A stretch of 19,817 bases of DNA. Origin: an uncultured cyanobacterium. Lineage in GTDB: Bacteria; Cyanobacteriota; Cyanobacteriia; Leptolyngbyales; Leptolyngbyaceae. The DNA is taken from assembly GCA_963766075.1 (NCBI GenBank), contig CAVYAN010000067.1, positions 1-19,817 of the forward strand, read 5' to 3'. The position numbers were made by a program, and so were the translations under genes. Position 1 is the first letter of the stretch. Each line of letters opens with the position of its first letter. The notes beneath the pieces were generated by a model. That model worked only from the letters and a program-made list of their open reading frames with translations, searched no databases and was not told where the DNA came from. Of this stretch, positions 1 to 19,037 are shown piece after piece.

Positions 1-208
1 ATAGCTTTCAACAAACAAATAAAGCTTCTACAAAGAGTCAGTAATTTCCCCGAATTCTGCCCATTCAATAACCTTTTAAATAGACCCAAATCTTATTTCT
101 CACTTTGCAAATATCAAAATTACACGCGATATGTTGAATCTGTGGGGTTAAACCCCCCAGTCAATCACCGTGCATCAAACAACAAGACCACACTATCGGG
201 ACTAGCCC

Positions 209-355
209 ATGAAAGAAATCACACCTCTCAAAAACGATGGGAAGGACAAGGCCATTCAATTGACCGCTTGGCTCTGGAGCCCACTACCAGAGCGTCACCA
301 AGAAATGCTGAGTGGCGGCGCACCCCGATTTAACGGTGGCATCAAGGGGAGTTAG
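209..355 (+). CDS. Double-Gly-leader small secreted peptide precursor, copy 1 (48 aa; not in ORF track)
   Basis: Manual translation from ATG 209: MKEITPLKNDGKDKAIQLTAWLWSPLPERHQEMLSGG-APRFNGGIKGS*, TAG 353-355. Same leader as downstream paralogs. Ser codons (AGC AGT AGT AGC) continue in the +1 frame across the stop, so the short core may be truncated by a frameshift. Confidence 0.8.
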   Translation: MKEITPLKNDGKDKAIQLTAWLWSPLPERHQEMLSGGAPRFNGGIKGS

Positions 356-465
356 CAGTAGTAGCCGCAGTGCCAAAGACTTCAACGGTTCAGATCTGAT
401 AGCACAACACCCCCAAAAACAACCATTCCCAGCAAACAACTATCAATCAAAAACACAGGAAAACA

Positions 466-664
466 ATGAAAATGCTCAAACCTAACTGCGTTCAATCGAT
501 CCCAATCCTTTGGACCCCGCTACCAGAATGTCAACAAGAGATGCTGAGCGGTGGTGCACCAACGAAAACCGGCGGCAATGGCAATGGATGGTAATGGCGG
601 TGGTAGTGGTGGTGGTAGCGGCGGTAGTAGCGGTACTTCCAGTGCTTCCAACATTAGCGGATAG
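466..664 (+). pseudogene. Double-Gly-leader peptide precursor, copy 2, frameshifted (not in ORF track)
   Basis: AGGA at 457-460, ATG 466: MKMLKPNCVQSIPILWTPLPECQQEMLSGG-APTKTGGNGNGW* (TAA 592-594). A shifted frame from about 588 reads DGNGGGSGGGSGGSSGTSSASNISG* (TAG 662-664), matching the Gly/Ser cores of paralogs. Either real decay or a sequencing indel. Confidence 0.75.
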
Positions 665-730
665 CGGATTTAGGTCTAGTGATAGATGATTTTGCCAGAT
701 AATAATCAATCAAAAAAGTACAGGAGAACA

Positions 731-877
731 ATGACAGCACTCAAACCGAACATCATTCAATCCACCCCTATTTTCTGGATCCCACTACCAGAGTGCCAAC
801 AAGAACTGCTGAGTGGCGGTGCATCGATGCTTACCCGCCCGGCTCCCCCCAGTTCTGACCTACCGGTCACTCAGTAA
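731..877 (+). CDS. Double-Gly-leader peptide precursor, copy 3 (48 aa, Pro-rich core)
   Basis: AGGAG at 722-726 before ATG 731; MTALKPNIIQSTPIFWIPLPECQQELLSGG-ASMLTRPAPPSSDLPVTQ. Start chosen by alignment with paralogs rather than the track start at 686. Confidence 0.85.
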   Translation: MTALKPNIIQSTPIFWIPLPECQQELLSGGASMLTRPAPPSSDLPVTQ

Positions 878-889
878 TACTGCGTGCCA

Positions 890-996
890 GCGACCACATA
901 ATCGACCGTAGCGGCGATCGCCGCCACAAACCCCAACACTTATTTCCAGTTCTTGGCACCATTTGAACCAACAACAGCTCCAGAAAATCCCTCATG
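890..996 (+). repeat. Intergenic/5' repeat of the peptide array, copy A
   Basis: 921-996 matches 1491-1566 with one mismatch in 76 nt. 890-996 also matches 1761-1873 with several indels. Contains the palindrome GCGGCGATCGCCGC (911-924). Confidence 0.9.
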
Positions 997-1182
997 ACAA
1001 CAATCAATCCCAATAGCATTCAACCAACCCCGCTGCTCTGGACCCCACTACCAGAGTTCCAACAAGAACTGCTCAGCGGGGGCGCGCCTTCTGTTGTCCG
1101 CCCACCGCTAACGCTACCACCTGGATCGCCCGGTGCCCCCACTGCCACCAGTTCCGAGATCACTAATCCCAAAAATAGCTAA
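994..1182 (+). CDS. Double-Gly-leader peptide precursor, copy 4 (62 aa, Pro-rich core)
   Basis: LLWTPLPEFQQELLSGG-APSVVRPPLTLPPGSPGAPTATSSEITNPKNS. Confidence 0.88.
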   Translation: MTTINPNSIQPTPLLWTPLPEFQQELLSGGAPSVVRPPLTLPPGSPGAPTATSSEITNPKNS

Positions 1183-1250
1183 CTGATCGTAAACGTGATC
1201 AGCTCAACATAATCGCCAAGAGCGACCAAAAGCACTCTTGAACATTTCAA

Positions 1251-1270
1251 CAACCAACCAACCAACCAAC
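1251..1270 (+). repeat. (CAAC)5 microsatellite upstream of copy 5
   Basis: caaccaaccaaccaaccaac read directly; ends 17 nt before ATG 1288. Confidence 0.85.
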
Positions 1271-1287
1271 CCATCAGAAAATATCTC

Positions 1288-1476
1288 ATGAAGCCAATGC
1301 CCTCGATCAAACCCAACAACAGCCAATCCTCCGCGATCCTCTGGACCCCGCTACCCGACTGCCAGCAAGAACGGCTCAGTGGCGGTGGACCGATTGTGAA
1401 GTCTAGTGGCGGTGTCACCCCCGGTGGCGGTGGTGGTAGCAATGGCGGCAGTGCCGATCCGTTGTCTCCTCAATAG
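1288..1476 (+). CDS. Double-Gly-leader peptide precursor, copy 5 (62 aa, Gly/Ser-rich core)
   Basis: ILWTPLPDCQQERLSGG-GPIVKSSGGVTPGGGGGSNGGSADPLSPQ. Confidence 0.88.
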   Translation: MKPMPSIKPNNSQSSAILWTPLPDCQQERLSGGGPIVKSSGGVTPGGGGGSNGGSADPLSPQ

Positions 1477-1490
1477 CTCACCATGGCTGC

Positions 1491-1566
1491 CCGCCACAAA
1501 CCCCAACACTTATTTCCAGTTCTTGGAACCATTTGAACCAACAACAGCTCCAGAAAATCCCTCATG
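1491..1566 (+). repeat. Intergenic/5' repeat of the peptide array, copy B
   Basis: CCGCCACAAACCCCAACACTTATTTCCAGTTCTTGG(A/C)ACCATTTGAACCAACAACAGCTCCAGAAAATCCCTCATG, exactly 570 nt after copy A. Confidence 0.9.
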
Positions 1567-1773
1567 AAAACAATGACAACAATCAATCCCAATAGCAATC
1601 AATCCACCCCAGCTTCTGGACCCCATTACCAGAATGCCAACAAGAAATGCTCAGCGGCGGTGCACCCAAGAACCAGCCGGTGGCAGCTCGCGGCATACCG
1701 GTGGTGCCAGGAGTGGCGCGGTGGGCGCTAGTGGTTAACCAGGCGGGCGATCCAGATTCCGCGACGCACATAA
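1564..1773 (+). pseudogene. Double-Gly-leader peptide precursor, copy 6, multiply frameshifted
   Basis: ATG 1564 MKTMTTINPNSNQSTP, a 2-nt remnant codon at 1612-1613, then FWTPLPECQQEMLSGG-APKN. Downstream GGT/GGC/AGC/AGT codon runs jump between frames. End placed at TAA 1771-1773 by homology and is approximate. Confidence 0.75.
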
Positions 1774-1873
1774 TCGACCGTGGCGGCGATCGCCGCCCAC
1801 AAACCCCAACACTTATTTCCAGTTCTTGAGAAAACATTTGAACCAGCAACAGCTCAATGGAAAATCCCTCATG
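1761..1873 (+). repeat. Intergenic/5' repeat of the peptide array, copy C (diverged)
   Basis: Aligns to 890-996 with indels; contains the perfect 16-bp palindrome GGCGGCGATCGCCGCC (1782-1797). Confidence 0.85.
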
Positions 1874-2086
1874 AAAACAATGGCAACGATCAAACCTAAC
1901 AGTAATCAATCGACCTCACTCCTCTGGACAGCATTGCCAGAGGACCAACAAGAACTGCTCAGCGGTGGTGCACCGCAAGTGAGTGGCGGCAATGGCGGCA
2001 ATACAGGTGGCGGCAATACAGGTGGCGGTAGCAGTGGCGGCAGTACAGGCACTTCCGTGATTATCTCTACGTACTACAGCCTCTAA
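1871..2086 (+). CDS. Double-Gly-leader peptide precursor, copy 7 (71 aa, Gly/Asn/Ser-rich core)
   Basis: MKTMATIKPNSNQSTSLLWTALPEDQQELLSGG-APQVSGGNGGNTGGGNTGGGSSGGSTGTSVIISTYYSL; start set by the shared AAAATCCCTC-ATG context. Confidence 0.88.
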   Translation: MKTMATIKPNSNQSTSLLWTALPEDQQELLSGGAPQVSGGNGGNTGGGNTGGGSSGGSTGTSVIISTYYSL

Positions 2087-2250
2087 ATGATGGCTGAAGT
2101 GCAACTTATCTAGCCCGTTTATGAAATTGCCGTCTCAGTTGGCTCATATCAACCGGCCTCCATCCACAACATATCCAGGCTTCTCAGGCTAAGTTGCACA
2201 TCGCGGTCAGTTCTTTTCACCCACAATATAAGACAGTCAAAGAACCTCTC

Positions 2251-2493
2251 ATGAAAACAATAAACGATCACAGTCAATCCACCTCCCGCCTCTGGACGCT
2301 ATTGCCAGAGTACCAACAAGAACTGCTCAGCGGTGGCGCACCGAAGAGCAGCGGCGGCGGCAGCGGCGGCAGCGGCGGCAGCGGCGGCAGCGGCGGCAGC
2401 GGCGGCAGCGGCAGTATCATATCCACGGCCAATCAGGGCTCCTCCGGGAATGGCTTAGTGGCCAGCATCACGATTGCCCTCTTCTCAGTTTGA
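2251..2493 (+). CDS. Double-Gly-leader peptide precursor, copy 8 (80 aa, (GGS)6 core, hydrophobic tail)
   Basis: MKTINDHSQSTSRLWTLLPEYQQELLSGG-APKSSG(GGS)6GSIISTANQGSSGNGLVASITIALFSV. Confidence 0.88.
   Translation: MKTINDHSQSTSRLWTLLPEYQQELLSGGAPKSSGGGSGGSGGSGGSGGSGGSGSIISTANQGSSGNGLVASITIALFSV
2356..2409 (+). repeat. Perfect 9-nt tandem repeat (GGCGGCAGC)6 encoding (GGS)6
   Basis: Read directly from the sequence. Confidence 0.92.
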
Positions 2494-2508
2494 TTGCCGA
2501 AGAATCAT

Positions 2509-2538
2509 CAGAGTCCAATTACACATCATTGGACTCTG
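2509..2538 (+). other. Stem-loop after copy 8 (mRNA stabiliser or weak terminator)
   Basis: CAGAGTCCAAT-N8-ATTGGACTCTG: 11-bp perfect stem, no U-tract. Confidence 0.6.
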
Positions 2539-2603
2539 TGCATCAACACTAGAGGCAATCACCAAATCGAAACAACATCACAGAATTCAATAGTGCAACA
2601 CCA

Positions 2604-2861
2604 ATGATGACCATGAGAACAACTACCCAAAACCAGGGTAATCAATTAACTTCCCCCCTCTGGATACCACTACCCGAATACCAACAAGAACTGCTCAGCG
2701 GCGGCGCACCCCGACAGAACGGCGGTAACGGCAGCAACGGTGGCGGCAATAGTGGCGGCGGCACTACCGGCGGCAGACCTAGCAATGGAAATCGGCCTTC
2801 AGAACCAGGGATTATCACCACTGGCAGTCAAGTCTCCCCGGATCGTTGGGATATGGACTAG
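2604..2861 (+). CDS. Double-Gly-leader peptide precursor, copy 9 (about 85 aa, Gly/Asn-rich core)
   Basis: PLWIPLPEYQQELLSGG-APRQNGGNGSNGGGNSGGGTTGGRPSNGNRPSEPGIITTGSQVSPDRWDMD; alternative ATGs at 2607 and 2613. Confidence 0.88.
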   Translation: MMTMRTTTQNQGNQLTSPLWIPLPEYQQELLSGGAPRQNGGNGSNGGGNSGGGTTGGRPSNGNRPSEPGIITTGSQVSPDRWDMD

Positions 2862-2960
2862 GTTACTCGGCGAATTTTGCTCCCTGACTGATCACTAAGT
2901 TTCTTACCGCAAGCTTCTTAACGCACCACAACCTACAAGCATCCTATTGGAGAACTCACC

Positions 2961-3203
2961 ATGGAACCACGACCGGCGATCGCATTGAACAACGACCCAT
3001 TCGCTTCATTACTTTGGACTGTACTGCCCGATACCCAGCAAGAAATGCTCAGCGGCGGCGCACCTAGAGTAACAACATCCGCGACTGGCACAACCACGAC
3101 TAACACAACCACAACGACCTTAACCACAACGACCTTAACCACAACCAGCACAACAGCCGGCAGTAGCGGTACAGCGACAACTGGAGCACGGCTCGCGCCC
3201 TAA
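2961..3203 (+). CDS. Double-Gly-leader peptide precursor, copy 10 (80 aa, Thr-rich core)
   Basis: GGAG RBS at 2949-2952; LLWTVLPDTQQEMLSGG-APRVTTSATGTTTTNTTTTTLTTTTLTTTSTT...; 24 Thr in a 47-aa core. Confidence 0.88.
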   Translation: MEPRPAIALNNDPFASLLWTVLPDTQQEMLSGGAPRVTTSATGTTTTNTTTTTLTTTTLTTTSTTAGSSGTATTGARLAP

Positions 3204-3336
3204 TTTTCAGTCACCATTTCATCCTCCTAGCAAAGGCTCCATAGCCTGATACTACGCATAGTCCGAAGTTATCTATTGAAAACAAATTACTTATGCGAGA
3301 GGCTTCTCCCCCGGGGAGAATCTCGCCCTCGGGAGT

Positions 3337-3374
3337 GCGGGATAAGCAAGTGCTGCTTATCCCGCCATTGTTTT
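3337..3374 (+). terminator. Probable intrinsic terminator closing the peptide array
   Basis: GCGGGATAAGCA-AGTGC-TGCTTATCCCGC (12-bp perfect stem) followed by CATTGTTTT; a second hairpin lies at 3295-3326. Confidence 0.65.
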
Positions 3375-3386
3375 AGCGATCACGCT

Positions 3387-3428
3387 TGCTTGAGATTAGA
3401 TGCTTAAGATTGGATGCTTGAGATTGGA
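3387..3428 (+). repeat. Three imperfect 14-nt tandem repeats upstream of the FHA-like gene
   Basis: TGCTTGAGATTAGA / TGCTTAAGATTGGA / TGCTTGAGATTGGA. Confidence 0.8.
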
Positions 3429-3574
3429 ATTGCGACCCCGTAGTGGATCATCCAAATTGACTAATTTCCGGCGATTAGCGTCCAAATTGATGCACTGAAA
3501 TCGATTACCTGTTAATTGTTTATTTCTCTAGCGATTTTGGCACTCTAGAAACAACTCTATCAACTAGGCATGAA

Positions 3575-6500
3575 GTGACCACTGAACCTGCCGCTAATAC
3601 CCTGTCACAGATTAAGGATTCCCCAATGAGCGCCCCGCCCCGTAAAATCTTGCTTGGTTATCCCCTTGCGGCATGGCTTGTGACATTCAGCAGTTGCCTA
3701 CTGCCTACCCCACTACAGGCCCAAATTGCGGGTGATGCCACAGTGGGCACACGGGTCAACGGTCAACTGACCAATCCCTGTGGTGGCGGAATTTGTACAA
3801 TCACCGGAGGCACTGCGGCGGGGGGCAACCTGTTCCATAGTTTCGATCGCTTTTCCATCCCCACAGGGGGGGAAGCCCGGTTTGACACAACTGGCGTCGC
3901 GGGCATCCAAAACATCATCTCGCGAGTCACAGGCGGATCCCTGTCGGATATTAATGGCACGATCAGCGTCGTCGGCGCGAGCAGTGGCGCAAATTTATTC
4001 TTGATTAACCCCAACGGCATTCTCTTCGGTCCCAATGCCAGCCTCAACCTGGGGGGATCCTTCATTGCCAGCACAGCCAGTAGTCTCGTCTTTGCCGATG
4101 GCAGTCAGTTCAGTGCGGCGACTCCGACCCATTCTCCCTTGTTAACCATTAGCGTGCCCATCGGGTTGCAGTACGGTGCGAATCCCGGCAGCATCCAAGT
4201 CCAAGGCCCCGGCAATAATCTGAGCCTAGATGCATCCTTCGCCTTTGTTCATAGTAACCCGCCACCACCCGGAACGTTATCGGTACAAGCCGGAAAAACC
4301 CTGGCTTTGGTGGGCGGTCCCGTCTCGATCACCGGAGGCAATCTCTTTGCCCTCGGCGGGCAGATTGAAGTGGGCAGCGTCGGTGGTCCAGGCACTGTCA
4401 GCTTAACGCCCAACACCTCAGGCTGGAGTCTCGGCTATCAAAACGTGGGCAGTTTCGGCGATATTACCCTATCCAAAGCCGCGCTGCTGAATGCCAGTGG
4501 CCCCGGGGGCGGTGCCATCCAGGTGCAAGGTCAAACCGTGCGGGTCCTGGATGGTTCACTCATCGTTAGTGATACCCTCGGCAGTGGCACAGGGGCACCC
4601 GTCACCATTAGAGCAGCCAGCGCCTTGGAAGTTTCCGGGTTTGATCCCAAAAATCTGTACACGAGTTCAATTATTACCGATGCCAACCCCAACGCCAGCG
4701 GCAGGGGCGGCGACCTCACTGTCGAGGCGGGCAATGTGTGGGTAAGGGATGGCGGGAGTATTGCCACGACAACCTATGGTCTGGGCACAGCGGGCTCGCT
4801 GATGGTAAAAGCGCCAAATGTCGAGGTCAGGGGCAGCGCTAACGTTGGCTATGAGAGTCTGAGCAGTATCTCGACCTTCGTTTTGCCGGGAGCCAAGGGC
4901 CAAGGCGGCAATTTGACCCTGCAAACCCAGAACCTACGGGTGGCCGATGGCGGCACAGTGTCTACGAATACCTTTGATGCCGGGAATGCAGGCACATTAG
5001 CCGTACAGGCGACAAACATTAGCTTGAGTGGGCAGTCTCCCCTGGATGGGGTTTCCAGTGGACTGTATGCAACCGTTTTCTCGGGGGCGACGGGGAATGG
5101 CGGCAACCTAGCGATCGCCACCCAACAACTCCAAGTGATCGGGGGAGCCAATGTGTCTGCCAGTACCTTTGGTAGCGGCAATGCGGGCACCCTCACCCTC
5201 ACCGCAGCGGATATTGCATTAACCGGCACCTCAACTACGGGTAATCCTAGCGGTGTATTTGCCCAAGTGGGGAGAAACGCCACGGGCCAAGGGGGCAATG
5301 TTGCCATTACTGCCCAAAATTTACACCTGGATCAAGGAGCGAATGTCTCTGCCAGCACCTCGGGAGCGGGCAATGCGGGCACCCTCACCCTCAACACCAA
5401 CCAGATCAGCATCATCGGCACCTCGGATCAAGGCAACCCTAGCGGTGTGTTTGCCCAAGTGGGGAGAAACGCCACCGGGAATGGGGGCAATGTTGCCATT
5501 ACCACTCAGGGTTTGCAAGCCACGGGTGGCGGGACCGTCTCTGTCAATACCTTCGGCAGCGGCAATGCGGGCACCTTAGCGATCAATGCTCAGACCATCG
5601 AGTTAATGGGCATTTCAACCTCCGGGAATCCCAGTGGCTTGTTTGCCCAGGTACGCCCTGGAGCTCGGGGCAATGGAGGCAGTGTGGCGGTGACTACACA
5701 GAACTTGCGTATTAGTGAAGGAGCGACGGTGTCTGCCAGTACCTTTGGCGGCGGCAATGCAGGCACCTTGGGCGTCAAGGCGGCGGATATTGAGATTTGG
5801 GGCACTTCGGCAGCGGGTAATCCCAGTGGGTTGTCGGCTCAGGTGGAAGCGGGATCGACGGGCCAGGGGAATGATTTGCGGGTTGAGACCGATCGCTTGC
5901 ATATCTGGAATGGTGGCCAAATCGGGACCACTACGTTTAGTTCCGGGAATGCAGGAAATCTGACCGTAGCCGCAGGGACAGTGGTGTTAGATGGCACATC
6001 AGCGGAGACACGCAGTGGTTTATTTGCCAGTGCCATTGCGGGAACGGGCGATGGGGGCAATATCGCAGTAACTGCCGACAGCCTGCTGATTCAGAATGGG
6101 GCGGCGATCGGGGTCAGTAATTTTCAAAGTCGCAATACCCTACCGCCGGGGCAAGGGGCCGCGGGCAATATTCAAGTGGATGTGCGATCGCTAAAACTCG
6201 ATCAGGACGGCAGAATTACGGCAGATAGTGCGGGTGGCTCGCGCGGCAACATCGCCATCAATGCCACCGAAGCCACCATCCTGCGGCACGGCAGCATGAT
6301 TAGCACCAATGCTCAAGGCTCCGCCACCGGGGGGAATATTTTCCTCACCACGCCATTTTTAGTGGTGCCTGCCTTAGAAAATAGCGATATCACAGCCAAC
6401 GCCGTCAACAATCGGGGCGGGCAAGTGATTGTGAATGCACGCAGTTTGTTGGGCACGCAGTTCCAACTCCAATTAACCCCCAAAAGTGATATCACTGCCA

Positions 6501-7009
6501 GCTCAACATTAGGCGCTGAATTTAATGGCACGGTGCAAATTAACACCCCTGACGTCGATCCAACCAGCGGCCTCGTCCCACTGCCTGCCGCCCTCATCGA
6601 TCCCCAGGCCCGGGTTGCCACAGCGTGTGAGCGCATCCAGAGCAATACATTTCTAATCACGGGACGGGGCGGCCTGCCGCAGGATGCCGCCCAAGCGCTC
6701 AGAGGGGGCAGTGTGTGGTCGGATTTACGCGAATCGTCAAGCGCAGCAAATTTGAGCCAAACTTCGGGGAGGAAACGGGGTTCCGAACGGGCTGATTCGA
6801 CTGGTTCGGGTGAGATGAGTGCGGGTGGAGGAAGTACGGGTGGAGGAAGTGCGGGGAGATCGCACCGCACCAGTCCCACCGTAGCTCCCGCGCCGTTAGT
6901 GGAAGCTATGGGCTGGTTCCGGAATGAAAAAGGGCAAGTTTTTCTCGTCGCAGGATCCCACAGCCCTAGCCAATCCCCCGGGACTTCAGTTGTACAATGT
7001 CGGAGATGA
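3575..7009 (+). CDS. Filamentous haemagglutinin N-terminal (TPS) domain-containing exoprotein, cyanobacterial type
   Basis: Signal-peptide-like stretch ending LQA-QI; TPS motifs NLFHSFDRF, NIISRVTGG, NLFLINPNGILFGPNA; about 8-9 beta-helical repeats of about 64 aa; C-terminal FLITGRGGLP and LVEAMGW motifs typical of cyanobacterial members. Start may be ATG 3626 instead of GTG 3575. Confidence 0.93.
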   Translation: MTTEPAANTLSQIKDSPMSAPPRKILLGYPLAAWLVTFSSCLLPTPLQAQIAGDATVGTRVNGQLTNPCGGGICTITGGTAAGGNLFHSFDRFSIPTGGEARFDTTGVAGIQNIISRVTGGSLSDINGTISVVGASSGANLFLINPNGILFGPNASLNLGGSFIASTASSLVFADGSQFSAATPTHSPLLTISVPIGLQYGANPGSIQVQGPGNNLSLDASFAFVHSNPPPPGTLSVQAGKTLALVGGPVSITGGNLFALGGQIEVGSVGGPGTVSLTPNTSGWSLGYQNVGSFGDITLSKAALLNASGPGGGAIQVQGQTVRVLDGSLIVSDTLGSGTGAPVTIRAASALEVSGFDPKNLYTSSIITDANPNASGRGGDLTVEAGNVWVRDGGSIATTTYGLGTAGSLMVKAPNVEVRGSANVGYESLSSISTFVLPGAKGQGGNLTLQTQNLRVADGGTVSTNTFDAGNAGTLAVQATNISLSGQSPLDGVSSGLYATVFSGATGNGGNLAIATQQLQVIGGANVSASTFGSGNAGTLTLTAADIALTGTSTTGNPSGVFAQVGRNATGQGGNVAITAQNLHLDQGANVSASTSGAGNAGTLTLNTNQISIIGTSDQGNPSGVFAQVGRNATGNGGNVAITTQGLQATGGGTVSVNTFGSGNAGTLAINAQTIELMGISTSGNPSGLFAQVRPGARGNGGSVAVTTQNLRISEGATVSASTFGGGNAGTLGVKAADIEIWGTSAAGNPSGLSAQVEAGSTGQGNDLRVETDRLHIWNGGQIGTTTFSSGNAGNLTVAAGTVVLDGTSAETRSGLFASAIAGTGDGGNIAVTADSLLIQNGAAIGVSNFQSRNTLPPGQGAAGNIQVDVRSLKLDQDGRITADSAGGSRGNIAINATEATILRHGSMISTNAQGSATGGNIFLTTPFLVVPALENSDITANAVNNRGGQVIVNARSLLGTQFQLQLTPKSDITASSTLGAEFNGTVQINTPDVDPTSGLVPLPAALIDPQARVATACERIQSNTFLITGRGGLPQDAAQALRGGSVWSDLRESSSAANLSQTSGRKRGSERADSTGSGEMSAGGGSTGGGSAGRSHRTSPTVAPAPLVEAMGWFRNEKGQVFLVAGSHSPSQSPGTSVVQCRR

Positions 7010-7204: not shown

Positions 7205-10200
7205 ATGGCACTATTACACGGGAGTTGGCTATTTTCGGGGTCTTCCCCTACCACTGGACCCACTCCGGGTGGATTATTTATTTGGGGAGAAGTTTGGCGA
7301 CGGCTAACCCCCGATCTCGGCTATAGCACCGCAGGCAGTTCCGGCCCCACAGGCGGAGATGCAGCCAATGGTCTTGGTCCGCAGATCATGGCTAATCCCT
7401 ATGCCCTTTCTCCGGTAGAATTGGCCGAATGGTTGCAAACCTGGCAAACAGAGGGAAAACTGCGCTTGCCCGAAGGGATGCTGACGGCGTTGCCCGTCAT
7501 GGTTGCTCCTAAAGGTCGCGCGAAGCGTGCGCGGGCTAGCGTTGCCGCAGACGCGGCCTCGTCCCCGGTCTGGGGGGAACCTTGGCAACTGCGCACACTT
7601 GGCCTGCCCTCTGGCCTGCTCACCGATGGTGAACTATCTGCCCCTGCTACCCTGCCCTACCATTCTGCCGCGTTGGCGGCGGCGGCGGGAGACATTTTTT
7701 TACAGCCCTGGCAAATTGCGGGCCTAGTGCTGAGTCCACCAGAGGCGATCGCCTTCCTCAACTCTCTGCCCCTTAGCTTCATGGCAGATCAGTCCTTTCT
7801 AGCAGACGAGCTGCGTTACTGGTCCCACGTTGCCCGTTGGAGCCTCGATCTGCTGGCTCGGGCCAAGTTTCTCCCCCATCTCGTCCTGCCGCAGCCCGAA
7901 CCATCAATCCCCGAGAAATTGCCCAGAGGGCCGTTGGATCACTCATCGGGGCCACGGGCACAGTGGCAACCGCTGCTCGATAGCGCCACCGATCAACTCC
8001 GCTGGCTCAAGTTTACAGAGTCAATGCCACTCATTTGTCGCTGCGGCCTGCCCGCGACGACCATGGCCTATCCCTATTTGCCCTTGCCAGCGTCGCCCCA
8101 AGCCATTCTGCAGGATTTCCTCAACCAAACACTGGATGGGCAAGTGCGGGCGATCTCCCAAGCCCATCCGTTACCCATCCCCGACCGTCTAGCTCGTGGG
8201 GCTCCAAAACCCGTAGCGATCGCCTCCCCGATTCGCGAATGGCTCCAGGCTCTGGCAGCACCGACGGACATCCTCCCCACTCCCGGCAGTCTGGAGGCAC
8301 TGCAAGCCGCCCTCAACAATTGGATGGCCCCGCTGCAAAATCAACATCAGCAGGCGCTGTTTCGCACATGCCTGAAGTTGGTGCCACCGCAGTACGGCCA
8401 ATCCACTTGGGCCCTGGAATATTTCTTGCAGGCGATCGACGATAGCAATTTTTTAGTGAATGCTGCCACAATTTGGAACAATCCCGTGGAGCAGCTCACC
8501 CTACGCGGCAAAACCATTCCCCGCCCCCAGGAAACCTTCTTGATGGGACTGGGGTTGGCTTCCCGCCTCTATGCGCCCATTGAACCCAGTTTGCAGGCGT
8601 CGCGCCCACAATCCTGCACACTCACGGCCCTGCAAGCCTATGAATTTATTAAATCGGTAACGTGGCGGCTGGAGGATAGTGGGCTGGGCGTAGTGTTGCC
8701 GCCCGGATTGGCGCACCAAAATGGCTGGGCCAATCGACTGGGGCTGAAGATTCAAGCCCAGACGGGCAAGCTGAAAAAAGGCGACAAGATCGGCTTACAA
8801 AATCTCCTGAATTTCCGGTGGGAATTGTCGATTGGCGGGCAAAGCATATCCAAGGAGGAATTCGATCGCCTAGTCGCCCTCAACATGCCCTTAGTCCAAA
8901 TCAATGACGAATGGGTGGAACTGCGGCCCCAGGATATTAAAGCGGCCCAAACGTTCTTTGCCAGCCGCAAGGACCAACCCGCGCTGTCCCTGGAAGATGC
9001 GCTGCGTATCAGTACCGGCGACACCCAAATGATTGAAAAGTTGCCCGTGGTCAGCTTTGAAGCGTCCGGTTCTCTCCAAGAATTGCTGAATACGCTGAAT
9101 GGCAATCGAACGGTGGAGGCGATCGCGACACCCAAAACCTTTCAGGGAGAATTACGCCCTTACCAGGCCCGAGGGGTGGGTTGGCTCAAATTTCTGGAGC
9201 AGTGGAGTTTGGGAGCCTGCCTTGCAGATGATATGGGCCTCGGCAAAACCATTCAACTGATTGCTTTTTTGCTGACCCTGCAAGAACAGAACAGCTTGAC
9301 CGATCCCGTGCTGCTGATTTGCCCCACTTCGGTTCTGGGCAACTGGGAGCGGGAGGTGAAAAAATTTGGTCCCACGCTGGGGGTGTTGCTGCATCACGGC
9401 GACAAACGGCCCCAGGGCAAAGCCCTGGCCAAAGCCGTCCAGTCAAAACAGCTCGTGATTACCAGCTATGCCTTAATCCATCGTGACTTGGATTCCCTGC
9501 ACGCGATCCCCTGGCAAGGCGTGGTCCTAGACGAGGCTCAAAACGTCAAAAATCCCGAGGCTAAGCAATCTCAAGCAGTACGCCAATTGTCGGCGCAGTT
9601 TCGTATTGCCTTAACCGGGACACCCGTGGAAAATCGGCTTGCAGAGCTGTGGTCAATTCTGGATTTTCTGAATCCGGGCTATTTGGGACCCAAAAACTTC
9701 TTCCAGCGTCGTTTTGCCACTCCCATCGAACGCTATGGCGATGCGGCTTCGCTGCAAACCCTGCGATCGCTGGTCCAGCCCTTTATTCTGCGGCGGCTCA
9801 AGAGCGATCGCGACATTATTCAAGATCTGCCGGAAAAGCAGGAAATGACGGTGTTCTGTGGGTTAACAACGGAGCAAGCGGCCCTCTATCAAAAGCTCGT
9901 GGATCAATCCCTGGTGGATATTGAATCAGCTGAGGGCATTCAGCGCAAAGGGATTATTCTAGCGCTGATCGTCAAATTGAAGCAGATCTGCAACCATCCG
10001 GCCCTGTTCCTCAAGGATACAGAACCCTCAGCATCCACCGACGCCGTCTTTCAGGCCCGTTCTGGGAAAGTCCAGCGGTTAGAGGAAATGCTAGAAGAGG
10101 TGGTATTGGAGGGCGATCGCGCCTTGATCTTCACCCAATTCGCCGAGTGGGGCAAACTGCTGCAAGCCCATCTAGAACAGCACTTGGGCCAGAAAACGCT

Positions 10201-10609
10201 GTTCCTCTATGGCGCTACGTCGAAAAAACAGCGGGAAGAAATGATCGATCGCTTCCAGCACGATCCCCAGGGACCCCGGATTTTCATTCTGTCGCTCAAA
10301 GCGGGTGGAGTCGGCTTGAATTTAACTCGGGCCAACCATGTGTTTCATTTCGATCGCTGGTGGAATCCCGCTGTGGAAAATCAAGCCACGGATCGGGTGT
10401 TCCGGATTGGTCAAACCCGCAACGTTCAGGTGCACAAGTTTGTATGCAATGGCACGCTGGAAGAAAAAATTCACGATCTGATTGAAAGTAAAAAAGCCCT
10501 AGCCGAACAGGTCGTCGGCGCGGGTGAAAATTGGCTGACGGAAATGGATACGGATCAACTGCGGAACCTCTTGCTGCTGGATAGAAGCGCCGTAATTGGG
10601 GAAGAGTAA
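7205..10609 (+). CDS. Snf2-family (SF2) helicase/ATPase with long N-terminal region
   Basis: LRPYQ, LADDMGLGKT (Walker A), DEAQ (Walker B), LTGTPVEN, SLKAGGVGLNL, QATDRVFRIGQ (motif VI). Confidence 0.96.
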   Translation: MALLHGSWLFSGSSPTTGPTPGGLFIWGEVWRRLTPDLGYSTAGSSGPTGGDAANGLGPQIMANPYALSPVELAEWLQTWQTEGKLRLPEGMLTALPVMVAPKGRAKRARASVAADAASSPVWGEPWQLRTLGLPSGLLTDGELSAPATLPYHSAALAAAAGDIFLQPWQIAGLVLSPPEAIAFLNSLPLSFMADQSFLADELRYWSHVARWSLDLLARAKFLPHLVLPQPEPSIPEKLPRGPLDHSSGPRAQWQPLLDSATDQLRWLKFTESMPLICRCGLPATTMAYPYLPLPASPQAILQDFLNQTLDGQVRAISQAHPLPIPDRLARGAPKPVAIASPIREWLQALAAPTDILPTPGSLEALQAALNNWMAPLQNQHQQALFRTCLKLVPPQYGQSTWALEYFLQAIDDSNFLVNAATIWNNPVEQLTLRGKTIPRPQETFLMGLGLASRLYAPIEPSLQASRPQSCTLTALQAYEFIKSVTWRLEDSGLGVVLPPGLAHQNGWANRLGLKIQAQTGKLKKGDKIGLQNLLNFRWELSIGGQSISKEEFDRLVALNMPLVQINDEWVELRPQDIKAAQTFFASRKDQPALSLEDALRISTGDTQMIEKLPVVSFEASGSLQELLNTLNGNRTVEAIATPKTFQGELRPYQARGVGWLKFLEQWSLGACLADDMGLGKTIQLIAFLLTLQEQNSLTDPVLLICPTSVLGNWEREVKKFGPTLGVLLHHGDKRPQGKALAKAVQSKQLVITSYALIHRDLDSLHAIPWQGVVLDEAQNVKNPEAKQSQAVRQLSAQFRIALTGTPVENRLAELWSILDFLNPGYLGPKNFFQRRFATPIERYGDAASLQTLRSLVQPFILRRLKSDRDIIQDLPEKQEMTVFCGLTTEQAALYQKLVDQSLVDIESAEGIQRKGIILALIVKLKQICNHPALFLKDTEPSASTDAVFQARSGKVQRLEEMLEEVVLEGDRALIFTQFAEWGKLLQAHLEQHLGQKTLFLYGATSKKQREEMIDRFQHDPQGPRIFILSLKAGGVGLNLTRANHVFHFDRWWNPAVENQATDRVFRIGQTRNVQVHKFVCNGTLEEKIHDLIESKKALAEQVVGAGENWLTEMDTDQLRNLLLLDRSAVIGEE

Positions 10610-10633
10610 AGAAAAGCGAGAGATCTAAACCCA

Positions 10634-11005
10634 ATGCAGGAACCGAATTTGCAGTCCGGACTGACGGCCTTTGCCAACCAAGACTATGGGCACGCCTGGG
10701 AGTTATTGCTGCCCTTTGCCCTGTATGGACAGGCAGAAGCCCAGTGCTTGATTGCCAGCATGTACCATTGGGGTTTAGGTCGCCCCGCAGATCTGCCAAA
10801 GGCGATTGAGTGGTATCGCCAAGCGGCGCACCAGAACTACGGCATGGCCTCCAACAACCTAGCGGCAATTTTGGCCCAGGGTTATGGCAACATGCCACCC
10901 GATCCAGAGACGGCAGATAGCCTCTACGCCAAAGCCCAGGAACAAGGATGGCAACACGCGCCCCAGGCGCTCATCGACTTGTTAGCGGATGTCTCAAAAA
11001 ATTAG
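10634..11005 (+). CDS. Sel1-like repeat (TPR-related) protein
   Basis: AEAQCLIASMYHWGLGRPADLPKAIEWYRQAA and ASNNLAAILAQGYG..AxxLYAKA match the SLR consensus; 24 nt after the helicase stop. Confidence 0.88.
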   Translation: MQEPNLQSGLTAFANQDYGHAWELLLPFALYGQAEAQCLIASMYHWGLGRPADLPKAIEWYRQAAHQNYGMASNNLAAILAQGYGNMPPDPETADSLYAKAQEQGWQHAPQALIDLLADVSKN

Positions 11006-11052
11006 AGGATGTCGCAGAAATTAGGCGATTTCCAGAAAAGAAGCTACCACCC

Positions 11053-11136
11053 AGATTGCTCCCTGAGCGGAGTCGAAGGGAGCAATCTTTCGCTGGCTGA
11101 GCGGAGTCGTAGTTCACTTCCCGCAGGGTAGCCAGC
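11053..11136. repeat. Pair of small palindromic dispersed-repeat (REP/SDR-like) elements between convergent genes
   Basis: AGATTGCTCCCT-GAGCGGAGTCGA-AGGGAGCAATCT (12-bp stem), then GCTGGCT-GAGCGGAGTCG-[20 nt]-AGCCAGC with the same core. Confidence 0.7.
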
Positions 11137-11176
11137 AGAACTCTGATCTAACAGGTATATTATTTCGTAAATCGCC

Positions 11177-11836
11177 TTAATACTCCCGGATCGTGTCGTA
11201 GCCTTCGTTCACCGGCGTTTTCAGTTTGGATTTTGCTTTGGCTGCGCTTTTCTTCAGGGCATCCAGCCGGGTTTCGTATTGCGATCGCAGCTTTTTCTTC
11301 GGGGACTGCTCCACCAAGGTTTTCAGGGCACTGCCCAGACTCTTGTAAGCATTGGGCAAGGTATAGCCAAAACGGGTAGCCAGGGCAATGGCCTTTTCGT
11401 CCGCTTCAATTAAGTCTTTGATCACGCGATCGCCGCCATTCTTTTGATATAACCGCCAGCCCGACACCCCACAAAGCACCAAAGCCAACACCAGCAACAG
11501 CCCATCTTGGACCCACAGTTCGCCAACGGCACCGCCTAAACCGATCGCTAAAGCCGCCATTTCCCAGCCATCCTTAGGAATGGTGTCATTTTGGATGCGG
11601 GCAACCTCATGCCAAAACAGTAGGTTGCGCTGGTCCAAAGCCAACTGCTCCCACTTCACCATGTCCACCTGCACCTCGATTTCATCCCGGCCAATTTCTT
11701 CGCAGGTAACGAGCGGGGGATTAACGGCAGTGGTGACTTCGACCGATACCCAGCTTTGCAATTCTGGCGGCAATAGGCTCCGAAGCCGCCGCAGTTCACT
11801 CATTTCAGCCCTAGCAGACGATGCGTACGATGTCAT
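11177..11836 (-). CDS. Conserved cyanobacterial membrane protein, DUF3318-like
   Basis: MTSYASSARAEMSELRRLRSLLPPELQSWV start, LLFWHEVARIQ, two TM helices, EADEKA; family recognised from memory. Start taken at ATG 11836. Confidence 0.8.
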   Translation of the reverse strand: MTSYASSARAEMSELRRLRSLLPPELQSWVSVEVTTAVNPPLVTCEEIGRDEIEVQVDMVKWEQLALDQRNLLFWHEVARIQNDTIPKDGWEMAALAIGLGGAVGELWVQDGLLLVLALVLCGVSGWRLYQKNGGDRVIKDLIEADEKAIALATRFGYTLPNAYKSLGSALKTLVEQSPKKKLRSQYETRLDALKKSAAKAKSKLKTPVNEGYDTIREY

Positions 11837-12003
11837 GGTAGTCCTGGGAACTCCCAAACTAAATAACTCTATTAAGCATCATAGCGAGCTAGGCTCTTCT
11901 AGGAAATGCCTAGGACGGTAGAGCAAACCGAAACAAGCGGGCCGATCGGGTTCGGTTGCGCAGGGTTTAGGAACAGAAGCGCCCACACAGAAGCCGATCC
12001 CAG

Positions 12004-12243
12004 CTATTCATCGGTGCGGCTAAAAGAATAGGTTGCGGGCTGAGTGGGGTTGGACTCGCCAGAATAGGAAACAATCACCCACAGGGGCACAACTAAGGTC
12101 AGTAGGGCGATCGTTGTTCCCAAAACGTTAGCCCATCGACTGGTGGGACGGTGAGCTGAACGATCCCATGAGTCTTGAGAGGGCATTCCTGATGACTGAG
12201 AGCCTGATGATGTAAAGCCTGATAACTTAGAGCCTGATGACAT
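12004..12243 (-). CDS. Small hypothetical single-TM membrane protein
   Basis: ANVLGTTIALLTLVVPLWVIVSYS hydrophobic helix; start uncertain (12282, 12243 or 12186). Confidence 0.6.
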   Translation of the reverse strand: MSSGSKLSGFTSSGSQSSGMPSQDSWDRSAHRPTSRWANVLGTTIALLTLVVPLWVIVSYSGESNPTQPATYSFSRTDE

Positions 12244-12247
12244 AGAG
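12188..12247. repeat. Four imperfect 15-nt tandem repeats
   Basis: CCTGATGACTGAGAG / CCTGATGATGTAAAG / CCTGATAACTTAGAG / CCTGATGACATAGAG. Confidence 0.8.
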
Positions 12248-12535
12248 CACGCTATAACGTAGAGCACAATTGGTAAAAGCATTCATCTGACTTTTTCCAG
12301 TTATCCCTAGAAAAACAAGAACGCTTCTATTCCCCTCTATCCTAATGAACTTTTTCGGAACTGGGTTACGTAAGGGTAACAATCGCGACCTGCACATACG
12401 GTCTTGACAACGGAGAAATAGCGTAATCGACTTCAGTCAAATGGCGGATTAGCACAATTTAATCATGACCTGAAAATCACGCCCTGCCCCCAGGACAGGC
12501 ATGCAAGTTGTTCGGATTGCCCCGATCAGAAGGCG

Positions 12536-12883
12536 TCACGATCGCACTTTCAACGTTTGATGGATGCCCTGCAACTCCGCCAAGATGGCTTTGAGCAATT
12601 CATGGGTTGGATCTGGCGGCATTTCCCGGACTTCGATCGTCACCTGCTTCAGTTTCAGCACATCTCGGGCGAACCGGGCGACTTCGTTGGGATGGAACAG
12701 CAGCACGTCATCTTTATCTTTACGCAGCTCGGCATTCAAGCGCCGGGGATCGTAGTCGGGGTTCAAGTTACGGACATCGGTGTTGGCATAGCGATAGATC
12801 GAGGCCCGCGATCGATTCAGAGTTTTCTGAACCGCTTCAATATCCATCAGTCCGTTGTGATCGTCGATCTGAACCATGCCCAT
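12536..12883 (-). CDS. Conserved cyanobacterial HTH-like DNA-binding protein (homologs often loosely labelled 'resolvase')
   Basis: LMDIEAVQKTLNRSRASIYRY resembles an AlpA/excisionase-type HTH; AAGGA RBS upstream; no recombinase catalytic domain. Confidence 0.7.
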   Translation of the reverse strand: MGMVQIDDHNGLMDIEAVQKTLNRSRASIYRYANTDVRNLNPDYDPRRLNAELRKDKDDVLLFHPNEVARFARDVLKLKQVTIEVREMPPDPTHELLKAILAELQGIHQTLKVRS

Positions 12884-12959
12884 TCATCCTTATTCGTAAA
12901 ACTAGATTCGGCAGACTAAACGCGGTGAATCTTAGCATGGGAACTTGGAGCGCGAGCAT

Positions 12960-13787
12960 TTAGCCTGCTCTGACGGGATCAAGCCACTGCAAAAGGGTAG
13001 CCTCTAACTGTTCCAATTCGCGATAAACTTCCTGGCGAACAAATTGGGCGATCGCATCAAACGGCGTAAACACCGATCCTGTTTGCCACTTCACATCAGG
13101 ACCTAAAGGAGTCAGGTGCGTGCCGGCCAACCGTTGGGTGCTGACCATCTGGGGGAAGCGGTCCACGAGGAGGTTAGAGAGCGATCGCGTTTGGTCCAGC
13201 GTATCATTGCGAAACTTAACCAGCAGATTGCGGCGGACGCAATAGCTATCCTGAATCAACGCAGCGGTTTCTGCGGGCGAGGGCGTGAATTCCATGGCGA
13301 AGCCCATAGCCCCATCCGTCACCAGCGAGGCGGCGAACGGCGAGGCGGCTAGAAATGAAGACACCTGCTGGGAAACCTGCTGCAGGAGAGGCACAGCTTC
13401 CCGCGCCGAAGAATTGTTGTAGGAAATCAAAATATTTCCGGCCCGCTCCACCGGATAAAGGCTACCAATCAGCAAATGCAGCTTGCAGCCCATACTGTGC
13501 CCCATGCCATAGATCGGCAAGGCGCGGCGGCGCAATACACGGCTTTCCAGGCTATAAAGGGCGCGTTCAAAAGAGCGCAGCACCGCCTGAGCAATATCTC
13601 GGTGATCAAAAGTATTAATGAAGGGCGTGGCTATGATAACGTAGCCTGCATCGGCCAACCGTTCCAGCAGGCGGCGATAGGTTAACTGGGGGGCAGTGGC
13701 AACAAAGGCACCGCCTAAAAAGTGAACGATTGCCACTGGGCGCGGTGGCACAAGTACCCAACTTCCCGAAATTTCCTGCCAGTCCAT
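12960..13787 (-). CDS. DUF1350-like alpha/beta-hydrolase-fold protein
   Basis: MDWQEISGSWVL, HFLGGAFVA, nucleophile elbow GHSMG, GTHLTP. Confidence 0.88.
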   Translation of the reverse strand: MDWQEISGSWVLVPPRPVAIVHFLGGAFVATAPQLTYRRLLERLADAGYVIIATPFINTFDHRDIAQAVLRSFERALYSLESRVLRRRALPIYGMGHSMGCKLHLLIGSLYPVERAGNILISYNNSSAREAVPLLQQVSQQVSSFLAASPFAASLVTDGAMGFAMEFTPSPAETAALIQDSYCVRRNLLVKFRNDTLDQTRSLSNLLVDRFPQMVSTQRLAGTHLTPLGPDVKWQTGSVFTPFDAIAQFVRQEVYRELEQLEATLLQWLDPVRAG

Positions 13788-13839
13788 GCGTATTTTTCGC
13801 CAATATTGGAATCATGCCCAGCCCACTCTGCAATCTTGG

Positions 13840-14991
13840 ATGGAATGGGGCCTAAAGCAAGACGATCGCCTCAGTGATTCTAGCATTTTTGCCATTGCCA
13901 TGGTGTTCGCCCTCGCCTTACGGGGACAATGCCTGAGCTTTGAATCTGTCGATTACAAAACATCCTTGTTAGTGTGGTACGACTTTATCCAAAGTCATGA
14001 CGGCATTCATGCTTTAAAAGAGACTTTTGCGAATTATTCACCGCCCTATTTGTATTGGCTAGTTTTTGCGGCAACGGCGCTGGCAGGGGTTCCCAAGGTG
14101 ATTGCCATTAAGCTGCTGGCCATCGTCTTTGACGGTGTATGTGCAGGATTTGTCTACGGAATCGTTCGATTGAAATATCCCACAGGCAAGCGGGCGATCG
14201 CCGCCTTTTGCACCATTCTGTTTCTGCCCACTGTATTTCTCAACAGTAGTCTATGGGGACAGTGTGACAGTATTTACACCACGGGGGCAGTTGCTTGCCT
14301 CTATTTCCTGTTACGCCAGCGGCCCGTGCCCGCGTTCCTAAGCCTGGGATTAGGCTTTGCCTTTAAGCAACAGGCCCTGTTTCTTGCGCCCCTATTACTT
14401 ATCCTTTGGGCCAAGGGCCGGGTCAAGGGCTGGATGTTTTTGCTGCTGCCCGCCACTTACCTGGTGGCCGTGCTGCCTGCCTGGGCTATGGGGCGATCTC
14501 TGCTGGATCTCCTCCAGATTTACACCGGGCAGATGGAAGGCTATCGCCACCTGACTAAAAATGCCCCGAATCTTTATCAGTGGATCTCGAATCGGTACTA
14601 TGACCTGATGGTGCCCTTGGGCCTAGCTGTAACGGCGATCGTCCTACTGGGGCTGGGCTGGCGCGTTTACCGCAGCCGCACAGAACTGACCCCGGACCGG
14701 CTGCTGCAACTCGCTTTGACCATCGTCTTTTTAGTGCCTTTTCTGCTACCCAAAATGCACGAACGCTATTTTTTCATGGCGGATGTCCTATCCGTCGTGT
14801 CTGCCTTCTATCGTCCTCAATTCTTCTGGATGCCTATCCTCATCCAACTGTCTTCACTCTTAACCTATACGGACTTTCTGTTGGGAGAACGCTGGGTTTC
14901 CTTCAAAGTTCTCTCCCTGGTCCTGATGGTATTTGTGGGCTTTCTCATTAAGTTGCATCTCCATACTTTTGCGAGAGGCGAGACCGCGTAA
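13840..14991 (+). CDS. Polytopic GT-C-type glycosyltransferase (Gpi18/GT87-like mannosyltransferase)
   Basis: Many TM helices; motifs [32 protein letters not shown]. Track start 13786 overlaps the divergent gene, so ATG 13840 is preferred. Confidence 0.75.
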
Positions 14992-15112
14992 AATCCCAGG
15001 GCAAAAAACCTGCGGTACGGTCCATCACCGCTGCTCCAGGCGCTTCTTACCACTGCCCATTGCCCATGCAAGCCGTCTCTGGAAAAATTCTCCCAATCTG
15101 TTCACGGGGATC

Positions 15113-15141
15113 TTGTCGGGAGGGGTATCCTCCATTACACT
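15113..15141 (+). promoter_or_regulatory. Candidate argB promoter with overlapping NtcA-type box
   Basis: TTGTCG (15113-15118)-N17-TACACT (15136-15141); GTA-TCCTCCAT-TAC (15125-15138) fits GTA-N8-TAC. Confidence 0.45.
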
Positions 15142-15173
15142 GCAACTGTTCCACTTGCATCCCCCTGCCGAGT

Positions 15174-18314: not shown

Positions 18315-18397
18315 GCCCAATGGCCCATTGCCTGGTCCTGGCGTTCAGTCACCCGTGCCGCAATCCCCGATCCCCCCATCCCCCATCCAAAATCCCC

Positions 18398-18844
18398 ATG
18401 TCCCAAGATGTCGCCCAGTGGCTCGCCGAAATTAAAGTGCTAAAGCAGCAGATTTCTGACCTGCAAGCGCAATTGCAACAGGCTTATCTGAGCACGGATA
18501 ACTGGCAGCGGCGCTACGAGATTGAGGCCCAACAGCGCCGAGTAGAAGTCCAACAAGCCCAGCAAGCCCTTGACGCACACCAGCAGGAAATTCAGCGGCT
18601 TCAGGGAAATGTGGACCTGACGGCAGCAGACCAAGCAGACGCTCTACAGCATCAACTCGATCCCGCAATATCACCCGAGGAACTACGGCGACGCTTAGTC
18701 GCGGTGCTGATGAAGCGCGATCGCCTCACTGCTGCCCTAGCCAAAGAACAAGAGGCGCATGAAGAAACCCGCCACAATTTGACCACCGCCTTGGGGGATG
18801 CGATCGCCCTGCTGTCTAAAGGAAAAGCAGCGGAGGAAGAATAG
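18398..18844 (+). CDS. Coiled-coil hypothetical protein
   Basis: MSQDVAQWLAEIKVLKQQ...HEETRHNLTTALGDAI; Q/E/L heptad pattern; track start 18233 overlaps the upstream gene. Confidence 0.8.
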   Translation: MSQDVAQWLAEIKVLKQQISDLQAQLQQAYLSTDNWQRRYEIEAQQRRVEVQQAQQALDAHQQEIQRLQGNVDLTAADQADALQHQLDPAISPEELRRRLVAVLMKRDRLTAALAKEQEAHEETRHNLTTALGDAIALLSKGKAAEEE

Positions 18845-19007: not shown

Positions 19008-19037
19008 ATGGGCCTTAGAAGACTAATCCGACCCAGT

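Follow-up and report, generated by a model that had tools for sequence, protein, structure and literature searches.

A 19,817-nucleotide (nt) contig from an uncultured cyanobacterium of the Leptolyngbyaceae (CAVYAN010000067.1, assembly GCA_963766075.1) carries ten co-oriented small genes, on the plus strand within positions 209-3203, whose products share a leader that ends in a double glycine (GG). The window analyzed here is this entire contig, C67 of the source assembly G000 (5.05 Mb, 126 contigs, 85% complete). The array encodes a real precursor family, uncatalogued, of an already known cluster type: judged by its sequence, the locus belongs to the group III clusters and, by its exporter, to the PteB family. 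A preliminary description had presented it as the best candidate for an undescribed system; in fact, the layout is covered by group III of Wang, Fewer and Sivonen (Wang et al., 2011; PMC3140520), of which EbfG1-4/PteB has been characterized (PMC4997328).

Copies are named here by their start positions. The leader columns W, L, P, Q, E, L, S, G and G are invariant across the ten copies and AP follows GG in eight, exactly as first described; leaders are 29-37 residues long, cores 11-55. A strict leader pattern had no match in 300 shuffles of window positions 1-3600, and a looser one found these ten copies only across all 126 contigs. Over the 17 codons from the Trp to GG+2, nonsynonymous divergence (pN) is 0.107 and synonymous divergence (pS) 0.553; because dN/dS is 0.115 (45 non-independent pairs), the repeat is maintained at the protein level. 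The GG motif with hydrophobic positions -4 and -12, in a dense array, is that of group III precursors. Motifs, orientation and starts were as originally listed, but not every gene is whole: nine of the ten leaders are in frame with their ATG, the exception being copy 1564, and copy 466 is cut off after 12 core residues. The genes, with related proteins from other sources denoted by P numbers, are as follows.

209..355, plus strand: precursor 1, with a 37-residue leader and an 11-residue core, 9 of 11 core residues being identical to the start of the P0012 core
466..594, plus strand: precursor 2, truncated by a frameshift to a 12-residue core; a Gly/Ser continuation runs to 664 in another frame, and P0036 is an intact 64-residue allele
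731..877, plus strand: precursor 3, with a Pro-rich 18-residue core; the P0033 core is similar, weakly (shuffle p=0.043, uncorrected)
994..1182, plus strand: precursor 4, with a Pro-rich 32-residue core that has counterparts in P0010 and P0029
1288..1476, plus strand: precursor 5, with a Gly/Ser-rich 29-residue core
1564..1829, plus strand: precursor 6, broken; the leader motif at 1617-1661 is off-frame relative to the ATG, through real decay or assembly error
1871..2086, plus strand: precursor 7, with a Gly/Asn/Ser spacer and a beta-prone tail
2251..2493, plus strand: precursor 8, with a Gly/Ser repeat and a hydrophobic tail, the tail being identical in 10 of 12 residues to a stretch of P0003/P0007
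2604..2861, plus strand: precursor 9, with a Gly/Asn-rich 51-residue core whose start is common to P0001
2961..3203, plus strand: precursor 10, with a Thr-rich 47-residue core; the sole copy to match the CTB family (NCBIfam NF038167; Pfam PF28158), below threshold (18.6 bits, cut-off 32)

How widespread is the family? A profile of the ten leaders retrieved 18 proteins among 1.84 billion representatives, of which 14 are family members; the other four were dropped (P0016 is an unrelated repeat protein, and P0014, P0015 and P0017 exceed 1000 residues and match over 9-11), and a wider alignment collected 24 among 8000 candidates. In 90 genomes from the order and 401 from the class, strong leader matches occur only in G000 and in Leptolyngbya sp. 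BL-A-14 (G099); one metagenome contig carries three further copies. Weak matches to the leader hidden Markov model (HMM) in G020, G049 (where a stop interrupts the match) and G531 (a CTB-like array) were not counted, and locus L008 showed no small GG gene. The leader search and library comparison proposed in the preliminary description found a family that is rare, present elsewhere, and below every library cut-off. Its remark that the peptides match nothing recognized also stands: no peptide rose above any cut-off in Pfam, NCBIfam or PHROGs, the sole relevant match being that of copy 2961 to CTB. Searching PDB sequences with two cores and with the family profile returned nothing beyond chance rows, plasmids and viral contigs held no match to the peptides, and the best ESM Atlas scores, 0.85 to an unnamed “bacteriocin family” cluster and 0.81 to CTB, serve as leads only. 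Literature searches for the leader string and for TPS-linked clusters returned nothing relevant, most subscription papers lying outside their scope; the leader motif strings of the window could not be located in the PMC3140520 supplements, in which the precursor table rows inspected carried no sequences.

Which transporter serves the array? The complete genome of BL-A-14 provides the answer by synteny: there, the locus consists of a divergent gene for an ABC transporter with a C39 peptidase domain (C39-ABC), three precursors, a TPS-domain gene and a gene for HlyD. G000 holds orthologs of the BL-A-14 C39-ABC (80-88%) and HlyD (67-68%) on contig C124. The BL-A-14 intergenic region aligns first with the left end of C124 and then, collinearly, with window positions 15-163; the C124 end is the best of 252 contig ends in this comparison (49 vs. 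34 for the runner-up), and the two contigs do not overlap. Judged by these alignments, C124 most likely adjoins the left end of the window across a contig gap. The aligned stretch is:

15..163, no strand assigned: conserved non-coding stretch upstream of the array, 70% identical to the BL-A-14 C39-peptide intergenic region (score 115, shuffle maximum 36)

This stretch is probably a promoter region common to the array and the divergent C39-ABC gene; promoter and terminator scans gave results at chance level. A perfect short palindrome (G-run, TTAA, C-run) lies within it at 145-158, and BL-A-14 retains part of it only. Two other C39 genes of G000, on C22 and C10, were rejected as cognate exporters at 28-29% identity to the BL-A-14 protein.

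The exporter is of the short type (714 residues in BL-A-14); PF03412, ABC_membrane and ABC_tran are found in the G000 pieces, and the peptidase residues Cys14, His90 and Asp106 are invariant in 34 of 34 rows, G000 included. Together with the HlyD gene, which group III clusters also have, these data bear out the early proposal that the peptides are C39-ABC substrates: the orthologous exporter has intact catalytic residues and is adjacent in a complete genome. The suggested inspection of neighborhoods thus located C39-ABC and HlyD beside the precursors in BL-A-14, with orthologs on C124, but no conserved modifying enzyme in the G000 or BL-A-14 locus. On C124 (L126:2513-4899), HlyD lies beyond C39-ABC and faces it, with a DUF4351 gene in between, whereas the BL-A-14 HlyD follows the TPS gene, a rearrangement.

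Exporters of this family are widespread, occurring in 83 of 301 class genomes with E values of 1e-150 or better, and that of the array is 53-60% identical to PteB of locus L044. In L044, four small open reading frames (ORFs) begin, after GG or GA, with the three EbfG mature peptides detected by mass spectrometry (PMC4997328), and a C39-ABC gene follows; Synpcc7942_1134 is listed in group III in the PMC3140520 supplement. Exporter trees were quick ones (IQ-TREE and FastTree); the 62 loci compared were drawn from 122 and 26 listed matches according to how similar their exporters were, and are a non-random sample. Both trees place the G000 and BL-A-14 exporters as sister to the exporters of one genus from another family (support 99), and in three of the four sister loci there are GG precursors of the Leu-Trp type whose cores are aromatic or rich in Pro or Tyr. 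The sister-clade loci L038:11500-15655, L102:2376-6526 and L103:2493-5944 contain, facing the first exporter, another C39-ABC on a long branch together with a HlyD of its own. Other clades have extreme cores, Arg-rich, Tyr-rich or built of Gly/Trp repeats (L041, L042, L043, L049-L051, L054, L116, L117, L120, L121, L019:15305-15478).

Membership can be judged by comparison with four known systems. Group III clusters comprise up to sixteen GG precursors with diverse cores, densely packed beside a short C39-ABC and HlyD (PMC3140520). The array shares this transport pair, the dense GG precursors, varied Gly/Ser/Thr-rich cores, the lack of a tailoring enzyme and even the frequent frameshifts noted in the same work; it differs in a rare leader subfamily (strong matches in 2 of 401 class genomes), the TPS gene as a conserved neighbor and a constant x-Pro-Arg/Lys start of the core. 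EbfG1-4 of Synechococcus elongatus are biofilm proteins secreted by PteB (PMC4997328; bioRxiv 10.1101/2022.07.13.498973; PMC12267927). Common to both systems are the exporter family, tandem GG precursors and cores rich in small residues that would, in the array as well, stay unmodified and be cut after GG; small residues (G, S, T, N, P, A) make up 0.51-0.87 of the window cores and 0.58-0.64 of the EbfG cores. By contrast, the leaders differ, array cores have 11-51 residues vs. 60-77 in EbfG, the amyloid hotspot motif (searched as Ala-hydrophobic-Asn-Ile-Gly/Ser) is absent from 37 of 37 family cores, and the array exporter is divergent rather than downstream, accompanied by a TPS gene and not in a sister clade of PteB.

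CTB genes, which are induced by phosphate limitation and whose function is assumed (PMC9846622), are likewise tandem GG precursors of cyanobacteria, located next to exporters of this family. Their leader end, Gln-Gln-Glu-Leu-x-Gly-Gly, is related, and a CTB locus, L019, is the best non-family match of the leader HMM; the kinship with cyanobacterial tandem leaders that had been suspected is supported by the weak CTB match of one copy. However, the other nine copies and all 12 relatives failed to match, while the positive controls L019, L047 and L040 scored 71.5, 64.9 and 33.1 bits, and CTB-like copies (L125) have a conserved core of ~60 residues in common, which the array copies do not. In microcin B17 and other linear azole-containing peptides, a Gly/Ser-rich core stands behind a leader ending in GG; unlike them, the array has no YcaO (in G000 and five clade genomes) and no Cys in the window cores. 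On these comparisons, the array belongs to group III, and to neither CTB, EbfG nor the azole-containing RiPPs (peptides made by the ribosome and modified after translation).

Are the cores, then, a freely diversified library in which all likeness ends at GG? They are not: of the 37 distinct cores in the family, 35 carry Pro at +2, and Arg or Lys occupies +3 in 29. “Hypervariable” is an overstatement as well, since several cores have counterparts in other organisms; the types of copies 209, 2251 and 994 recur, that of 731 weakly, and the cores form a partly conserved repertoire. Direct identities rather than shuffle p-values carry this recurrence because p cannot fall below 0.0033 in the shuffle test, each core enters 27 comparisons, and Gly runs inflate the outcome. 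Window cores contain no Cys (0 of 10), have a net charge of 0 to +2, and consist of Ser and Thr to 28%; a hydrophobic tail ends 10 of the 37 family cores. The DNA points to how the array changes, through one further element:

895..1004, plus strand: repeated intergenic and 5' unit before copy 994, found also before copies 1564 and 1871

Across 84 nt, 921-1004 and 1491-1574 are 98% identical, and copies 994, 1564 and 1871 resemble one another at 79-83% in their upstream and leader DNA, as against 50-67% for other pairs. The unit before these three copies would reflect recent duplication or homogenization ahead of unlike cores, and because similar upstream and leader DNA precedes unlike cores, the array appears to be reshuffled via shared units. 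Unequal crossing-over within the intergenic and leader units and slippage in Gly tracts could drive this process while distinct core types are kept.

What do the peptides do? Each gene encodes a leader of 29-37 residues, kept by purifying selection and ending in GG; the exporter encoded on C124 would bind this leader, cut after GG and pass the core outward via HlyD/TolC. The precedent of PteB and EbfG makes cleavage after GG and export of unmodified cores very probable, and most products would begin with x-Pro-Arg/Lys. In another reading, in line with the early mention of RiPPs, an enzyme encoded elsewhere would modify the precursors, e.g., by O-glycosylation of Ser/Thr tracts or heterocyclization: the Ser and Thr content would offer substrates, the long conserved leader could serve as a recognition site, and a stand-alone LanM acting in trans has been described (PMC3140520). 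Yet nothing indicates such modification. YcaO is missing from G000 (85% complete) and from five of five clade genomes, the complete G099 included, while controls were positive in 5 of 14; the window cores lack Cys; the peptides have no NHLP, Nif11 or lanthipeptide-type match in Pfam or NCBIfam; and neither the G000 nor the BL-A-14 locus holds a conserved or tailoring enzyme. A LanM/LanC search had no match in G000, and none in controls either. RiPP precursors are a highly improbable reading.

The exported mixture of near-neutral peptides rich in Gly, Ser, Thr, Pro and Asn, some with beta-prone hydrophobic tails, could serve, redundantly, as cell-surface or matrix material and, like EbfG1-4, take part in adhesion and biofilm formation, here in concert with an exoprotein. 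The exoprotein gene follows the array:

3337..3365, plus strand: terminator-like hairpin between the array and the TPS gene, a consensus match only (the scan found 8 vs. 5.0 expected)
3575..7009, plus strand: gene for a TPS-domain (filamentous hemagglutinin-like) exoprotein of 1144 residues with no VENN motif (PF05860, 203 bits; TIGR01901, 71.5 bits)

TPS proteins are established adhesins in other bacteria. The window protein is 63% identical to its BL-A-14 neighbor, ShlB-type transporters are present, and each of the other five members of the exporter's clade (support 99) has a TPS gene in its locus, vs. 8 of 62 loci overall. TPS genes also occur near C39 exporters outside this clade, in L030, L031, L111 and G000:C22 18000-41700; the last is a three-gene exporter of the NHLM type with one GG precursor and a TPS gene nearby. 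That the peptides are unmodified secreted surface or matrix material acting with the TPS exoprotein is a tentative view, quite possible though short of probable. It is favored because the sole characterized relative found, EbfG/PteB, acts in this way, the composition is EbfG-like, hydrophobic tails close 10 of the 37 cores, and a gene resembling those of adhesins is inherited together with the array.

Several observations weigh against it. Beyond the missing amyloid hotspot, none of the best 45 leader-HMM matches is an EbfG leader; 27 of 37 cores have no hydrophobic tail, and several are Pro-rich or just 11-18 residues long, making a poor scaffold. PteB lies outside the sister group, the cores that accompany the nearest exporters are aromatic or Tyr-rich, and sister locus L103 has a TPS gene but no GG peptide that could be seen. 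TPS linkage is weak evidence of joint function because TPS genes are common (24 tblastn matches in G000) and the exporter clade represents two lineages, four of its rows coming from one genus. Finally, single-base shifts interrupt both the C39 and the HlyD gene of G000 (one each), and two precursors are frameshifted as well, above background.

Do these breaks mean that the locus is dying? In copy 1564, the frame shifts between the ATG and the Trp codon and, apparently, again in the core; in copy 466, a stop follows the twelfth core residue, but P0036, on an independent public contig, reads through. Of 41 G000 loci tested with long ORFs of other genomes, five are split over frames, C39 and HlyD included, leaving a background of 3/39. 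Because psaB (G000:C31 66254-68480) is among these split background loci, lying over two frames, the G000 assembly contains indel errors. Real decay in the G000 strain could account for the breaks, though we doubt it; the family is intact elsewhere, as judged by loci and alleles in other genomes and contigs. A stronger version, in which the locus is a relic, the copies are by-products of repeat expansion and export is lost, draws on the same excess of shifts but is very unlikely: psaB shares the defect, selection on the leaders is purifying, unbroken loci and alleles are present elsewhere, and the idea would apply at most to this strain, not to the family.

The surface or matrix reading has two other competitors. 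The peptides may be unmodified class II bacteriocins or microcins directed at competitors, the array widening the target range; this would be compatible with a matrix role, given that microcins may be antibacterial and amyloid matrix at once (PMC13188072). A GG leader with C39-ABC and HlyD is the classical bacteriocin layout (PMC3140520), and Gly-rich cores with hydrophobic tails (10 of 37) fit as well. However, the cores are nearly uncharged and mainly hydrophilic; the one characterized relative is not reported as an antibiotic in the accessible parts of PMC4997328; and the gaps of 41-164 nt between copies hold no convincing immunity ORF, although very small genes can escape detection: only three short antisense hydrophobic frames lie there, two of them over the repeated intergenic unit. 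This function is unlikely.

Alternatively, the released peptides could act as ligands, a cocktail of signals, decoys or mimics in which x-Pro-Arg/Lys serves for recognition and the cores mimic proteins of low complexity on the surface of neighbors, grazers or hosts. The near-constant Pro (35 of 37) and Arg/Lys (29 of 37) would thereby be explained, as would an 11-residue core that is conserved between organisms and too short for a scaffold; the constant residues may also reflect nothing but a cleavage preference of the peptidase. Under low-complexity masking, none of the 37 cores matches the six-frame proteome of G000 (11 unmasked matches are Gly runs), Pfam, PHROGs and PDB contain nothing meaningful, and there is no receptor or AraC gene in the G000 and BL-A-14 loci, unlike in the loci described next. 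We consider this reading rather unlikely, its remaining argument being that housekeeping motifs do appear as cores, behind similar Leu-Trp-type leaders, in two other clades of the same exporter family.

In these two clades (mapping the label onto the tree takes two changes), what follows GG repeats motifs known from abundant proteins, namely PsaB, ATP synthase c, phycocyanin beta, porin, pilin, thioredoxin, S10 and EF-Tu; the copies often form mosaics and often set N-terminus against N-terminus and C-terminus against C-terminus. The loci are L025:5480-7920 (G115), L026:12893-13060 (G230), L027:11502-16416 (G134), L028:11715-12094 (G169), L034:11718-13731 (G144) and L104:4109-6274 (G399). In a first set compared with the G000 six-frame proteome, 13 of 81 cores matched at E 0.05 vs. 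17 of 405 shuffled; in a larger set at E 0.005, 13 of 149 candidate cores matched vs. 1 of 447 shuffled, 10 of them in the six loci and 3 in apparent stray ORFs. A core in L034 has 18 of 18 residues of the cluster-binding stretch of host PsaB, and a peptide in L027 ends with 13 of the 14 C-terminal residues of AtpH; other identities are 13/15 (thioredoxin), 13/15 (porin), 12/17 (pilin) and 10/14 (S10). NCBIfam adds sub-threshold matches to PsaA/PsaB, ATP synthase c, S10 and porin. One core opens with the first residues of phycocyanin beta, with porin- and AtpH-like pieces behind, and another with the EF-Tu N-terminus (E 0.21, weak on its own).

Recent capture of host genes at the DNA level was rejected, the host genome having no DNA match to these cores below E 0.2 outside the locus. 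In eight peptide-host comparisons, from which two pairs landing on PsaA were excluded, 59 of 85 identical residues other than Met and Trp use a different codon, as large a share as between atpH genes of different families (7/12 and 7/13), synonymous sites being saturated; with codon differences of this order and no host DNA match, the likeness is conserved at the protein level. AraC genes adjoin the array in both of the loci checked, and literature searches, from whose scope most subscription papers fell out, found no description of mimicry by such peptides. In a second exporter clade, cores in L058:5606-7954 (G285), L107, L108 and L109 (G404, G406, G367) resemble separate pieces of other proteins, which we take to be Hcp, a DUF1559-type prepilin and a trypsin-family protein; the serine-protease-like match reached only E 1.3. 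A general model would have PteB-family exporters secrete “epitope libraries” that imitate other proteins, with the window array as the low-complexity arm: Gly-, Pro- and Thr-rich surface look-alikes behind the constant x-Pro-Arg/Lys start would act, perhaps jointly with the TPS exoprotein, as decoys or lysis-mimicking signals to grazers, hosts or kin. The copied motifs are plain in the neighboring clades; to extend their function to the window array is conjecture, and the model as a whole is unlikely.

The rest of the window (7205-19817) encodes a SNF2 helicase, a Sel1 protein, DUF3318 and DUF1350 proteins, a weak GT87-like glycosyltransferase, a metallo-beta-lactamase-fold protein, an M50 peptidase and an amino-acid kinase, presumably ArgB-like, along with what we take to be the start of a HisG-like gene. 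The BL-A-14 locus shows none of these neighbors.

The bacteriocin label is attached to hundreds of GG precursors from cyanobacteria, whereas the one characterized set found for this exporter family builds biofilm matrix. The array offers a second, chemically simple test set, short, unmodified and synthesizable, for distinguishing matrix, signal and antibiotic roles, and its value is increased by core types conserved across organisms and by the co-inherited TPS exoprotein. The lead from the neighboring clades matters more than the array itself: peptides that are secreted and preserve motifs of photosystem I, ATP synthase, phycocyanin and EF-Tu exactly, through selection at the protein level, would be self-mimicry.

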